Below are positions 3,601-21,772 of a stretch of DNA of 64,000 bases, one piece after another. The stretch spans positions 229,276,001-229,340,000 of the forward strand of contig OZ024742.1 in the NCBI GenBank assembly GCA_964016885.1. The letters run 5' to 3'. Each line of letters starts with the position of its first letter. Positions within the stretch are counted from its first letter, which is position 1. This DNA is from Eledone cirrhosa. Taxonomy: Eukaryota. The notes under the pieces were generated by a model that had not been told where the DNA came from, did no database searches, and saw only the letters and a list, made by a program, of their open reading frames with translations. The position numbers and the translations under genes are program-made.

Positions 3601-3770
3601 AGATCTGAGATCAGACTGTCGTTCCAAGTAGATCCGCTACATTTCCGGAACGAGTGATCATAGCTCCGATATTACAAGTATGTGGTTAGAATGTCTCATG
3701 AAGAAGGAGGAAGAAGTAGAAGAAGAAGAAGAAGGAGAAGGAGAAGGAGAAGGAGAATAATAATAAAAAT

Positions 3771-4765
3771 AGGTCTTATCAGCATAGAGGACTGTGTTCA
3801 GATGGAAAAAAACAACCTACACAAATACGTGACTGGTGTAAGGAGCCAATGCTCAGAACTGTACTGAAGGAGGGGACAATAAGCCAGGGGATGTCCAAGG
3901 AGGAAATAACATCAAGGAGAAAGAGCAGCCTTCAGGAAAAATCCCTTCATAGTACCTTCTTTGAGAAAACTGAATTTACAGATCCACAGACATGGAACTG
4001 GTTGAGAAGAGGAGACCTTAAAAAGGCTACAGAAGTAATGTTAATGGCTGCGCAGGAGCAGGCCCTCAAAACGAAGTGGTTGAAACACCATATTTACAAG
4101 GAGGAGGCTAGCCCACTGTGCAGGATCTGTGGAGAGAGAGAGGAGACTGTGGCTCACATTGTATCCGAGTGTAGACACCTAGCCCAGACCCACTATAAGG
4201 GCTGGAGACATGATGTGATGGGCAGGGTGATCCACTGGCACCTGTGCAAAGTAAACAATTTACCACATTCTGAGAACTGGTATGAGCATAAGCCAGAGGC
4301 AGTGATGGAGAACAATCAGGTGAAGGTGCTGTGGGATTTTAGGATACAGACGGACAAGAAACTGGAACACAATAGACCTGACCTGGTGGTTGTGGATAAA
4401 GAAAAAAGATCGTGTCTGATTGTGGATGTGGCCTGCCCATTCGACACGAGAGTGCAAGAGAAGGAGAGGGAGAAAATTAACCGATACCAGGACTTAAAGT
4501 GGGAGGTAAAAAGGATTTGGAACTGCCATGAAGTCAAAGTGATCCCGATTGTCATAGGCGCACTGGGGACTATCTCCAAAAGTTTCCAGGGATGGTTAAA
4601 GAAAATCGGCCCCTTCACGCTTTTTGGAACGATTCAAAATGCATGCTTGCTGGGAACAGCAAGAACCCTCCGATACGTCCTGAATATCTGAGGCTGCAGG
4701 TAGTGGCTTGATATTCATTCCAACGGACTTTCCAGTTAACTAACATCAATGACTGAGATTCAAGG
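3771..4765 (+). mobile_element. 5'-truncated R4/Dong-type RLE retrotransposon, copy 1
   Basis: Near-identical to ~14700-15694; ORF 3849-4691 has CRICG..H....C knuckle, RHD and PD..D endonuclease motifs; flanked by (AAT)n. Confidence 0.93.
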
Positions 4766-4797
4766 AATAATAAAATAATAATAATAATAATAATAAT

Positions 4798-5493
4798 AAC
4801 GAAGTGGTTGAAACACCATATTTACAAGGAAGAGGCTAGCCCACTGTGCAGGATCTGTGGAGAGAGAGAGGAGACTGTGGCTCACATTGTATCCGAGTGT
4901 AAACACCTAGCCCAGACCCACTATAAGGGCTGGAGACATGATGTGATGGGCAGGGTGATCCACTGGCACCTGTGCAAAGTAAACAATTTACCACATTCTG
5001 AGAAGTGGTATGAGCATAAGCCAGAGGCGGTGATAGAGAACGATCAGGTGAAGGTGCTGTGGGATTTTAGGATACAGACGGACAAGAAACTGGAACACAA
5101 TAGACCTGACCTGCTGGTTGTGGACAAAGAAAAAAGATCGTGCCTGATTGTGGATGTGGCCTGCCCATTCGACACGAGAGTGCAAGAGAAGGAGAGGGAG
5201 AAAATTAACCGATACCAGGACTTAAAGTGGGAGGTAAAAAGGATTTGGAACTGCCATGAAGTCAAAGTGATCCCGATTGTCATAGGCGCACTAGGGACTA
5301 TCTCCAAAAGTTTCCAGGGATGGTTAAAGAAAATCGGCCCCTTCACGCTTTTTGGAACGCTTCAAAAGGCATGCTTGCTGGGAACAGCAAGAACCCTCCG
5401 ATACGTCCTGAATATCTGAGGCTGCAGGTAGTGGCTTGATATTCATTCCAACGGACATTCCAGTTAACTAACATCAATGACTGAGACTCAAGA
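4798..5493 (+). mobile_element. 5'-truncated R4/Dong-type RLE retrotransposon, copy 2
   Basis: Near-identical to ~14999-15694; begins in the (AAT)n tail of copy 1 and ends in (AAT)n. Confidence 0.93.
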
Positions 5494-5781
5494 TGTAATA
5501 ACAATAATAATAATAATAATAATAATAATAATAATAATGTTTTCTATATTAACCACAAGGGTTCACATAAAGTAGACATTAAGGACAGTACAGGACAATA
5601 CAGGACGGTACAAATGGGCATTTCTGCGTGTAAAAAAACAGAGGTTGAAATAAAATAACAAAGAAAAATTCCCCAATAGGGGGGAGACTTCCAAGGGACA
5701 TTTGTGGAGAAAGCCCATTAAAAGACCACAGTGGCCCTGACCACCAGGGCAAGTGCCCTCTCCCAGTTTTCCACCTTTAAT

Positions 5782-18900: not shown

Positions 18901-19326
18901 CACACAGTCCCAGCGTGCATCTAAGATCCCGTTCCAAGAAAGGTCTCCAGACGCCGGAAGAAATCAGGCCGCCCTGCTCCTGTCGGGGCATAGACGGCCA
19001 CTAGCCTGAAAGCTTGCCCGTCTCCGCTGGTCACGTCCAGCACCACCAGCTTACCCTCTGGGTCCAGGAAGATGGCCCGTATGGCGAGATCCAAACCTCT
19101 CCGAAAAAGCACAGCAACTCCATCCCCCCGATCCAGGACGGCTGGGAGATGCGTACACATCGTAGCCGCCGAAGATCGGTGCGAAGGCCCGTGCTTCGGA
19201 GATTCTGGTCTCGCTGATGGCCACAACATCTATGTTTAGTGACCTGAGGTCGTTGTGCAGGTGACCCTGCTTCCATGACGACCCCAAGCCACGCGCATTT
19301 ATGCTGCCTATTCTGAGTGAGGTCAT
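15972..19326 (-). pseudogene. Tx1-B ORF2 (APE endonuclease + RT + CCHC), frameshifted
   Basis: Pieces carry SINARGL, TDH, DQSKAFDRV, VRQGCPLS, AYADD and CPRC..ETVLHALFQC; several indels. Confidence 0.93.
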
Positions 19327-19465
19327 GTTTAAAATAGAGTGGAAAAGATGGGAAAGACCACTTACCGTACTTTTCGTAGAGGAGGGATGGTTTTTACATC
19401 CCTTTTCACTTGATCGTCTGGTGAAGGGACCGTTGAATCGTCCCTTCGGCTGGTCGTCGGCTCTT

Positions 19466-21457
19466 CTATGAGTATGTCCGAATATACTCTTCGATTGTAG
19501 TTCCTTCTAGGTCCCTGAAATCACCAACTGCGTTGGGGAATTTCGTTTTAATGTTTGTGTATTGTTTCTGTGCTATTTTTAGCAGTCTTATGTTAGTTGG
19601 CGTTTTGATTGGTGCTGGTATTATGTAGTCGTGTTGTGAAATGTCTGTGTGTTCAATTATGTAAGTCATTAGTTTCTTGTTGTGTGTATTTATTGCCGTG
19701 CATTCGTTTTTCTGGGGGTGGGGTGTGGTTCTGCTATTTTCTTGTCGTTGTTGCTGGGTGTGTGTGTTTTGTTGTTGTGTTTGCGATGTTGGTGCTTGTG
19801 GTGGTGGTGTTGAAGGTGTTGTTGGCGGTGGGGTTTTCGCCGGTGGTGATGGTGGTGCTAGTGTGGGTGGTGATGGTGTTGGTGGTGTTGCTGCTGTGAG
19901 TCTCTTTGCAGTAGACTTTACCCTTTTCTCATTTCTTTCCTCCCTTTTCAAAGGCGACGATGCGCTGCTTCTGCGTTTGTGCCTTCTTACGACCTTTTGC
20001 CATCCCTCTCCCACCTCATACTCCATGTCTGATTCTGTGAGGTCGGGGAGGCGTACCAGACCCACTCTTTCACTTGTTGTTGTTGGTGATGTTTGCACTG
20101 GAGTCTCTGTTGCAGCTGCATTTGGTATTGCTGTTGTTGTTGTTAATATTTCCACTGCTGCTGCTGTTTTTGATTTCCGTGGCGTGGGTGCCACGGACCT
20201 ATCGTTCCTGGTTGCCGCTTGTCCTGTTGCTGGTAGCCGTGGAGCCGGTTTCGGAAGGAGGGGGGTTTTCTCCTTTCTCCGGGTCTTCTCGTTGCAGAAG
20301 GCCCTGAGGTGAGTCTTCGATCCACAGCGAAAGCATTTCGGGCGTTTGCCCTCAACACTTATGGGCAGTTGAGTGCCGTTATCGAAGTCTATCACATCCG
20401 GGATAGCTTCGATGCACTCCTGGTTGGTTTGGATTAACATCTCAATGGAGGTGGCGACCCAATCTTCTCTTACTTTTTTCTGTACTTGCAGTACAGTTGT
20501 TTTGTCCTCGATTCCGACGAGGACAGACGCGGCCAGCCAAGAAGGGGCCATCCCGGGGGGGACGTGGGTCAGTTTGACCCTCACAATTTTTTGCCCGCAG
20601 TAGGAGGGCACCAACGCCATTTCCTCGCTCCTTAGGGTCACTACGGATTGAGCCTTTGCCTCCTGGGGTGTGGCAAAAAGTATGTCTACTGTGGCATATT
20701 TTTTGCCTCGGGTGATGTGCGTTTTCCGCTGCCACACAGACCCCAAGGCTTTTTGTATTTGAGCCTCTGTGGCTCTTTCAACCCTACGGGATTTTGTACT
20801 TACTGTACGGTACGTGACCGTACAGTGCTGTTGGGTTTCGAAAAAATTTTCCGCTACCTTGCAGATTGCTCGGTGTCCAGTCTTTGTCACCATCTTCTTC
20901 GCTTCCTCTAATTCCTCATTTGTTATGAGGATTGTTTCCCGGTTCTTCGCGATACCTGCAAACGAGATTGGTTTTTCTTTGCTGCTGTTGTTGTTGTTGT
21001 CGTCATAGCTGCTGTTACTTTTGTTGTTGCTGCAGGTACTACGACTACTGCCTCCGCCGCTGTTGCTGTGGTTGTTGTTGGTGTTGCTGCTGCTAATGCT
21101 GTTGTTGTTTATGCTGCTGGTGATGCTGTTGCGGCTGCTACTGTTGTTTTCATTGTCACTGTTGCTGTTGTTATTACGGCTGCTACTGCTATTATTCCTG
21201 ACGTCAGACGAATGAAATGGGTTTTCGTATTTCCCGCACACCTGTTTCATCGTTGTCGTCGTCGTCGTGGAGAAATCTTGCACGCTTTGCACGAGACTTT
21301 TCTTTTCTGTCGTCGCTTGCGAAAGAGAAGGGAGGGAGAGAGACACATTTAAAGAAGGGAGGGAGAGAGACCATCTTCTCTCTGCTGAAGTGATGATTGA
21401 GGAAGAAGAAGAAGGAATGAGTGGGAGTGACCTATGAAAATTCTTTTTCGTAGCCAT
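19466..21457 (-). CDS. Tx1-B ORF1, gag-like nucleic-acid-binding protein
   Basis: Open from ATG at 21457; Asn/Ser-rich N-terminus, central domain shared with A, knuckle CFRCGSKTHLRAFC, Pro/Thr-rich tail. Confidence 0.88.
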   Translation of the reverse strand: MATKKNFHRSLPLIPSSSSSIITSAERRWSLSLPSLNVSLSLPSLSQATTEKKSLVQSVQDFSTTTTTTMKQVCGKYENPFHSSDVRNNSSSSRNNNSNSDNENNSSSRNSITSSINNNSISSSNTNNNHSNSGGGSSRSTCSNNKSNSSYDDNNNNSSKEKPISFAGIAKNRETILITNEELEEAKKMVTKTGHRAICKVAENFFETQQHCTVTYRTVSTKSRRVERATEAQIQKALGSVWQRKTHITRGKKYATVDILFATPQEAKAQSVVTLRSEEMALVPSYCGQKIVRVKLTHVPPGMAPSWLAASVLVGIEDKTTVLQVQKKVREDWVATSIEMLIQTNQECIEAIPDVIDFDNGTQLPISVEGKRPKCFRCGSKTHLRAFCNEKTRRKEKTPLLPKPAPRLPATGQAATRNDRSVAPTPRKSKTAAAVEILTTTTAIPNAAATETPVQTSPTTTSERVGLVRLPDLTESDMEYEVGEGWQKVVRRHKRRSSASSPLKREERNEKRVKSTAKRLTAATPPTPSPPTLAPPSPPAKTPPPTTPSTPPPQAPTSQTQQQNTHTQQQRQENSRTTPHPQKNECTAINTHNKKLMTYIIEHTDISQHDYIIPAPIKTPTNIRLLKIAQKQYTNIKTKFPNAVGDFRDLEGTTIEEYIRTYS

Positions 21458-21675
21458 GTTGTTTTTTTTTTGTTTAAAATAAATATTGGGCACAAAACCC
21501 CAATAAGCAGTTATTTAACCCCGAAGGGCCAAATAACGGGCAGAAAGACCCCTCTCACGAGGAGGAGGGTGTTTTTGTCGTCAAGTTCGTTAAAGTTTTA
21601 AACAATTTACAATTGTTATAGCGTTCAAAATTTACAATACCTTACAGAGCCGAGCCTCCGTCAACCATAGCATTC

Positions 21676-21772
21676 AATAATAATAATAATAATAATAATA
21701 ATAATAATAATAATAATAATAATAATAATAATAATAATAATAATAATAATAATAATAATAATAATAATAATA
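21676..21772. repeat. (AAT)n tract closing the retroelement train
   Basis: About 32 perfect units. Confidence 0.98.

Follow-up and report, generated by a model that had tools for sequence, protein, structure and literature searches.

A six-retroposon train in an (AAT)n microsatellite of Eledone cirrhosa, and the use of this repeat by two unrelated LINE families in opposite directions

Background

TRAS1 and SART1, two telomeric long interspersed nuclear elements (LINEs) of the R1 clade, both use an apurinic/apyrimidinic endonuclease (APE). They enter the same (TTAGG)n repeat in opposite directions (PMC7265360). Other LINEs settle in microsatellites. Among elements with a restriction-like endonuclease (RLE), whose clades are treated in PMC4640811, Dong of Bombyx mori sits in (TAA)n (PMC2887409), belongs to the R4 lineage and carries a self-cleaving ribozyme at its 5' end (PMC3774820). 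The Kibi, Koshi and crocodilian families of the Tx1 clade occupy (TC)n, (TTC)n and (TTCC)n/(TTTC)n (PMC4494074). Here we describe a 64,000-nucleotide stretch of the genome of the octopod Eledone cirrhosa (GenBank assembly GCA_964016885.1, contig OZ024742.1, positions 229,276,001 to 229,340,000 of the forward strand; hereafter the window), in which six retroposons form a train within an (AAT)n microsatellite. Our overall explanation, which we consider probable, is that the train was built by separate insertions into a repeat that two unrelated LINE families, one Dong-like and one Tx1-like, use genome-wide in opposite directions. As with TRAS1 and SART1, two families enter one repeat from opposite sides, but the enzymes of the present pair do not share a fold, and they use a microsatellite that is dispersed through the genome.

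Dong-R4 families have been recently active in Octopus vulgaris (PMC13282606), and both Dong-R4 and L1-Tx1 elements are abundant or recently active in cephalopods (PMC13282606, PMC8967140). The text covered of these two papers holds no target analysis of either group, the phrase "target site" having no occurrence in the main text of PMC13282606, and the parts covered of PMC4758252 and PMC6410037 add nothing further on targeting. Our literature search found no ATT-targeting Tx1 family, no RLE/APE pair on a single microsatellite and no Tx1 leader; Repbase, Dfam and older work lay outside it, so a prior description is possible. Two other systems offer points of comparison. For R2 RNA that carries upstream 28S sequence, uniform 5' junctions have been explained by annealing of the cDNA to the upstream target (PMC3774820). 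Among short interspersed nuclear elements (SINEs), SINEU is likely mobilised by Tx1-Mar and has a weaker target preference than that LINE (PMC4494074), and stringent SINE-LINE pairs have a 3' stem-loop (PMC3747384).

Organization of the array

Between positions 3756 and 21771, the window contains six elements with AAT tracts of 15-96 bp as their sole spacers. On the forward strand they read Dong-like (+), Dong-like (+), Tx1-like (-), SINE (-), full-length Dong-like (+) and Tx1-like (-), so that a Dong-like and a Tx1-like 3' end meet tail to tail in two places. This is the arrangement given in the first-pass annotation of the window, and sequence reading, Tandem Repeats Finder (TRF), self-BLAST and Pfam/PDB searches all bear it out. 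The orientation of the elements follows a rule that holds far beyond this locus: at 388 AAT tracts in 319 loci (1.91 Mb; mostly loci chosen for holding these elements, with those of the window itself removed), 443 of the 452 element ends have Dong-like elements running with the AAT strand and Tx1-like (Tx) elements and the SINE running against it. The features of the array are as follows; UTR stands for untranslated region, ORF for open reading frame.

3700..3770, + strand: left edge, a (GAA/GGA)n run and then a short imperfect AAT tract at 3756-3770 (TRF, sequence reading)
3771..4765, + strand: Dong-like RLE element 1, 5'-truncated; last 1 kb, with zinc knuckle, nuclease and 3' UTR (zf-RVT; 95.5% identical to element 5, the full-length copy, over 995 bp)
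4766..4799, + strand: AAT spacer (TRF, sequence reading)
4800..5496, + strand: Dong-like RLE element 2, 5'-truncated (identity 98.0% with element 1 and, over 693 bp, 96.4% with element 5)
5497..5538, + strand: AAT spacer at the first tail-to-tail junction (TRF, sequence reading)
5539..9926, - strand: Tx1-like APE element TxA, both ends present (Exo_endo_phos; 97-98% to the natural copy L241 outside positions 3701-5185 of L241)
9927..9971, + strand: (AAT)15 spacer, in phase with the 5' end of TxA (self-BLAST, sequence reading)
9972..10157, - strand: 186-bp SINE with tRNA-like box motifs (by eye) and a 3' hairpin whose CTTGT loop is common to Tx (self-BLAST, hairpin comparison)
10158..10189, + strand: AAT spacer (TRF, sequence reading)
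10190..15694, + strand: full-length Dong-like RLE element (TRF, ORF, genomic copies, PDB motif match)
15695..15721, + strand: AAC/AAT spacer at the second tail-to-tail junction; its AATAAC start recurs in other Dong-like copies
15722..21675, - strand: Tx1-like APE element TxB, full length, with ORF2 in several frames (RVT_1, zf-RVT; 96.4% to the natural copy L205)
21676..21771, + strand: (AAT)32, right edge, in phase with the 5' end of TxB (TRF, self-BLAST, sequence reading)

Because such trains and their polarity recur genome-wide, the array is an ordinary product of this genome, without importance of its own. The arrangement is far beyond chance, but it is common across the genome and this array is one among many.

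Opposite polarity across the genome

The tabulation of flanks and orientation places both LINE families in (AAT)n genome-wide with opposite and fixed polarity, as the first-pass annotation had supposed. In another tabulation, 103 of 105 Dong-like ends at tracts read AAT on the sense strand, as expected of a Dong/R4 element in (TAA)n, and the other ends followed the rule in 239 of 240 and 58 of 59 cases. Joints between elements outside the window, counted over the loci in hand rather than the whole genome, include 21 Dong-Tx joints tail to tail and 32 head to head, as well as 28 Tx-Tx and 15 Dong-Dong joints. A second Dong-like family (L157, L210, L226 and others; about 40% protein identity), which ends in (AAT)n on the sense strand, and more divergent Tx subfamilies keep the same polarity.

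The same preference is seen when element ends are used as queries. All 30 best matches to the 5' end of TxA and all 30 to that of TxB (queries without repeat flank; each set includes the window's own copy) adjoin ATT runs on the element strand, one of them imperfect, and all 30 best matches to the Dong-like 5' end adjoin AAT, with a slight bias in that this query began with a piece containing AATAA. Exact counts over the whole genome put the TxA 5' end directly after TATTATT in 1,602 cases and after a base other than T in 10, all of which still lie within ATT runs; the count leaves out other T-preceded cases. The TxB-type 3' end occurs 3,704 times, followed by (ATT)4 in 2,832 cases and by ATTAT plus A, C or G in 89, with the remaining 783 unclassified; the repeat target is thus found in far more than the 20% of copies that PMC4494074 takes as its criterion for a target preference.

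Among 60 evenly spaced 10-kb samples (contigs C1-C4), four contained LINE-bearing trains, and 16 of the 24 AAT tracts of at least five units touched an element (8 of the 24 touched a LINE). The first-pass annotation had proposed that the array feeds itself by regenerating its target. This stands only in a weak sense, in that a tract is left on both sides of each insertion and most sampled tracts touch an element; targets would multiply because each insertion leaves tract on both sides, Dong-like elements bring an AATAAC-type tail and target duplications copy the target. At C1:55,423,666-55,449,631 and C1:56,169,683-56,181,809 we observed runs of five and three Tx 3' ends, respectively, about 6-7 kb apart, which are probably head-to-tail trains longer than the array in the window.

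The Dong-like element

The full-length Dong-like copy starts with a short duplicated 5' piece (10190-10204) and a 2-kb 5' UTR, which includes four 322-bp tandem units at 10367-11658, and continues into an open ORF of 1141 codons (12195-15620) and a 3' UTR. For the non-coding sequence at 10190-12194, a seventh element and host DNA were both considered and rejected: other genomic copies continue along the UTR and mostly into the ORF, which makes this block the 5' UTR of the element. The number of 322-bp units varies, with one to three in 29 other copies and two in 21 of these 29. The single ORF encodes a reverse transcriptase (RT) followed by CCHC, RHD and PD..D..E..K motifs (motifs at residues 952, 981, 1037, 1054 and 1067) and no APE domain, which is the layout of the R2 group of RLE-type elements; the protein matches RVT_1 in Pfam, and among PDB entries it comes closest to R2 proteins, in alignments that include the PD motif. 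Dong of B. mori has the same domains and likewise occupies (TAA)n, with the repeat in the same sense as the element's tail. The element described here differs from it in its long 5' UTR of tandem units, in the lack of a detected ribozyme and in sharing its target with an APE family.

Attempts to name the clades by homologues returned 135 and 45 matches that are essentially unnamed, and Atlas clusters name only domains. "Dong-like" is therefore used here as a provisional label that reflects domain layout and target. A query from the start of the 5' UTR gave 1,333 first-look candidates in the genome; the 24 matches to a 3' query should not be taken for a copy number, because frequent words are ignored by that search. 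Dong-like tails share an AATAAC start, so part of the 3' tract is element-borne, and the letters of the tail differ between elements 1 and 2 of the array. AAT is also present on the 5' side of 18 of 20 resolved 5'-truncated copies (24 rows read by eye, 4 unresolved). A motif of 11-12 bases, TTTCTGCCCGT, is common to the Dong-like 5' UTR (about 12056-12067, +) and the TxB 5' UTR (about 21536-21546, -), 100-170 bases before the ORF, and is not found in TxA; it may be due to chance or be a shared regulatory element.

The Tx1-like elements

Neither Tx copy of the array is intact: TxA lacks about 1.5 kb, including the RT, at 6229-6240, and ORF2 of TxB is broken into several reading frames. L205, an intact natural copy of TxB, carries ORF1 and ORF2, the latter 1139 residues long and, according to Pfam, comprising APE, RT and zinc knuckle domains. 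With its N-terminal APE, RT and C-terminal zinc knuckle, this ORF2 has the layout of the L1 group and is closest to L1 ORF2p among PDB entries (E 3e-52, compared with 2e-21 for R2). The two LINE families thus have unrelated endonucleases, as the first-pass annotation stated, namely a C-terminal PD-(D/E)xK nuclease in the Dong-like and an N-terminal APE domain in the Tx-like elements (Pfam/PDB, motifs). The narrower label "Tx1-like", also provisional, reflects layout, the absence of poly(A) and target habit. Like Kibi, Koshi and the crocodilian families, these are APE-RT-zinc knuckle LINEs in a microsatellite; unlike them, they lie in (ATT)n on the element strand and share it with an RLE family.

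TxA and TxB have ORF2 and the 3' UTR in common (95.5% identity between natural copies), but their 5' UTRs differ and their ORF1s are 48-60% identical in matched blocks. Their 5' halves (window 7787-9926 and 19410-21675) have the appearance of a 5' module exchange between co-active families, each with more than 1,000 candidates. A hairpin with a CTTGT/TTTGT loop, as in the 3' recognition hairpin, is present at 9776-9790 and about 21487-21503 (-), in each case a short distance ahead of the likely ORF1 start, in two 5' UTRs that are otherwise unlike; the TxA version resembles the SINE tail. In related Tx families (L138, L139, L158, L164 and L170; 46-68% identity), whose 3' hairpin is similar, seven ends were seen to lie in (ATCT)n rather than (ATT)n; these families offer a natural contrast for endonuclease specificity.

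The SINE and the Tx cut site

The 186-bp element is short, non-coding, dispersed and of high copy number (1.5-2% of an unselected 600-kb sample) and has target duplications, all of which are features of a SINE. ARAGORN called no tRNA gene in its head. It may resemble the octopus SINEs of Ohshima and Okada (1994). Among 51 SINE 3' ends of the 600-kb sample, 30 had the head in range, and 19 of these 30 copies have target duplications of 9-20 bp, compared with a mean of 1.6 and at most 5 in 100 shuffled pairings. Seventeen of the 19 duplications start with (A/G)TTAT (15 ATTAT, 2 GTTAT). ATT runs flank the SINE on the 5' side in 5 of 30 copies, far above the 0.17% background, and on both sides in only 2 of 30, so the SINE is not a specialist of AAT repeats.

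Short truncated Tx copies land, like the SINE, at lone ATTAT sites, and copies of either kind add no repeat tail there. Since the upstream copy of the duplication begins with ATTAT too, this motif belongs to the target DNA. Target-primed reverse transcription is an established mechanism, and with the motif in the target it would place the first cut of the Tx enzyme, likely, at ATAAT/ on the A-rich strand. The opposite-strand nicking proposed in the first-pass annotation is in this respect upheld on the Tx side by the target duplications; for the Dong-like enzyme, a first cut on the T-rich strand is suggested by orientation and by the geometry of target-primed reverse transcription.

The 3' ends of the SINE and of Tx have a CTTGT loop and a GAAA tail in common, with a compensated stem: among 198 ends, the second stem pair is G-C in 91 and C-G in 88, and the third is G-C in 110 and A-T in 66. 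This common 3' end and the ATTAT start of the duplications in both are what is expected of a SINE that depends on a Tx1-like LINE, and we think it likely that the SINE borrows a Tx-type enzyme through the hairpin. Its target preference is weaker than that of Tx, as for SINEU and Tx1-Mar, and the compensated hairpin recalls the stringent pairs; it differs from SINEU in its tRNA-type head, the shared CUUGU loop and the duplications that start with ATTAT.

Further SINE copies are found in the window at 22106-24169, 30425-30866, 32553-32735, 37686-37879 and 40140-40461 (self-BLAST), several of them in tandem and only some at AAT tracts. Apart from the retroposons, a cluster of long overlapping open frames occupies 43687-47993, where the Pfam search gave no family match.

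Full-length and truncated Tx insertions

Selection by the 3' end gave 29 young Tx copies. Sixteen of them extend to the 5' end, and all 16 have an ATT run upstream; a further 8 are truncated and the other 5 unresolved. Conversely, for 40 copies chosen by their 5' end, the 3' end was located in 33 and is directly followed by ATT runs in 31. Of 114 5' junctions, counted with the 10 oddest ones of TxA, 113 are in the same triplet phase, even though the duplications range from 9 to 20 bp in length. When the comparison is limited to copies with a 3' flank other than pure ATT, 1 of 16 full-length copies has an adjoining duplication, compared with 15 of 30 short truncated ones (Fisher p = 0.003). Of the 89 odd-flank Tx sites, 38 distinct ones were examined (30, 12 of them extended, and 8 more).

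Since the full-length 5' junctions lie in one phase and lack an adjoining duplication, we lean slightly towards the view that the full-length Tx RNA begins with (AUU)n and that its cDNA anneals to the genomic repeat. The uniform junctions resemble those of R2 with a 28S leader; in R2, however, the 5' end is the product of a ribozyme and the nuclease belongs to the RLE type, whereas the Tx leader is proposed for an APE element from junction statistics only.

Several points weigh against this interpretation or its parts. The sample used for the duplication comparison is enriched for odd 3' flanks, one of its truncated rows is probably a chaining artefact, four long unresolved copies were omitted, and 15 of the 30 short truncated copies have no duplication by the rule used. 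Later point mutations or later short 3' insertions may mimic a missing duplication in full-length copies, so the clean full-length cases are those at compound-repeat borders (L217, L247, L260, L311, L312, L314 and L315). In the full-length copies L306 and L307 the 3' flank occurs a second time upstream, separated from the element by 13-14 ATT units; a leader would account for this, but so would 3' transduction or tandem duplication. No ribozyme, including one resembling that of hepatitis delta virus, turned up at any 5' end (Rfam gave two chance-level matches and a simple descriptor scan none, neither being sensitive), so a leader would have to come from read-through or from a start inside the repeat. 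The loop was fixed by the hairpin search pattern, the stem is only 3-4 bp long, and the SINE stem is not identical to that of TxA or TxB. Finally, nine of the 452 ends tabulated at AAT tracts break the polarity.

Proposed mechanism and alternatives

In the mechanism that we propose, the first cut would fall on opposite strands, that of the Dong-like enzyme on the T-rich strand and, likely, that of the Tx1-like enzyme on the A-rich one at ATAAT/. Each RNA would then prime on the cut end by means of a short match, and the orientation would be fixed in this way. The Tx enzyme would need only the short ATAAT motif, and SINE and short truncated Tx copies could then scatter to lone ATTAT sites with 9-20 bp duplications, the SINE using the Tx-type enzyme through the common hairpin. 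A full-length Tx RNA starting with (AUU)n would yield a cDNA able to anneal to the genomic repeat; integration of complete copies would then be confined to AAT tracts, where it would keep the phase and leave no adjoining duplication. As each insertion would leave a tract on each side, trains would lengthen with time. Taken as a whole, such two-step targeting by an L1-group element, with a loosely specific endonuclease, a leader that confines full-length integration to AAT tracts, a freely roaming SINE and a niche split by strand with an RLE family, both multiplying their target, is a tentative scheme that we put at somewhat below even chances. If true, it would mean a high yield of complete, in-phase copies, as among those chosen by their 3' end.

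The same shared niche could arise without an RNA leader if the Tx endonuclease made both cuts within (AAT)n in a fixed phase and the RNA started with one to three ATT bases. This is possible, though we consider it distinctly the less probable course: a match of a few bases would be enough to fix the junction phase, in SART1 and TRAS1 the site is determined mainly by the endonuclease (PMC7265360), and the failure to find a ribozyme at Tx 5' ends agrees with it. Against it, truncated copies at tract borders (L116, L320) keep the duplication, while it is missing at (ATT)n/(CTT)n or (ATC)n borders from the full-length copies L217, L247, L260, L314 and L315. Another view would reverse cause and effect, the elements making AAT instead of targeting it, so that the tracts are tails and slippage products and polarity comes from the tail of each family. 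The element-borne AATAAC start and the two thirds of sampled AAT tracts that touch an element speak for this; yet 5'-truncated Dong-like copies, which cannot carry a 5' leader, have AAT on their 5' side almost throughout, no repeat tail comes with Tx and SINE insertions into lone ATTAT motifs, and the presence of ATTAT in the upstream copy of the duplication marks it as target sequence. We regard this explanation as unlikely.

Least probable of all, in our judgement hardly tenable, is that a single Dong-Tx pair was duplicated locally to give the array, or that the array is an artefact of assembly. A 1,450-bp block across the joint of Dong 3' end, AAT and Tx 3' end does recur at 91% identity (self-BLAST), no public contig or read spans the array, and the four tandem 5' UTR units of its Dong-like copy exceed the number in the 29 other copies. 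The two halves nevertheless differ unequally, with 96.4% identity for Dong and 88.8-93.2% for Tx. The three Dong-like copies are 95.5-98.0% alike and vary in the letters of their tails. The Tx copies do not agree with each other in 5' UTR or ORF1, and each is 96-98% identical to a separate family elsewhere; trains of other composition occur across the genome. The unequal divergence and the separate matches of each Tx copy argue for independent insertions. As to independent sequence data, Logan contigs (X16-X19) are short, repeat-collapsed and cut at AAT tracts, and neither support nor contradict the array, and raw reduced-representation reads (X23, X24) show both families to be abundant in two further samples, pairing across the joint not being reported. 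The assembly at this locus is without independent confirmation, and our conclusions rest on the genome-wide pattern.

Implications

Relative to known microsatellite targeting, what appears to be new here is the opposite-strand sharing of (AAT)n by an RLE and an APE family, together with the difference between full-length and truncated insertions and, likely, a Tx-type carrier for a common SINE. The E. cirrhosa elements form a young natural system of high copy number, with thousands of near-identical ends, open ORFs for both enzymes and one repeat that is read by two nuclease folds, each from its own strand. Because full-length, truncated and SINE insertions contrast with one another, a poorly understood step of APE-type LINEs, the joining of the 5' end and the priming of the second strand, becomes open to testing, which bears on full-length, site-directed insertion with retrotransposons. 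For this genome, the system points to a likely carrier for an abundant SINE and accounts for the fact that most AAT microsatellites adjoin mobile elements.

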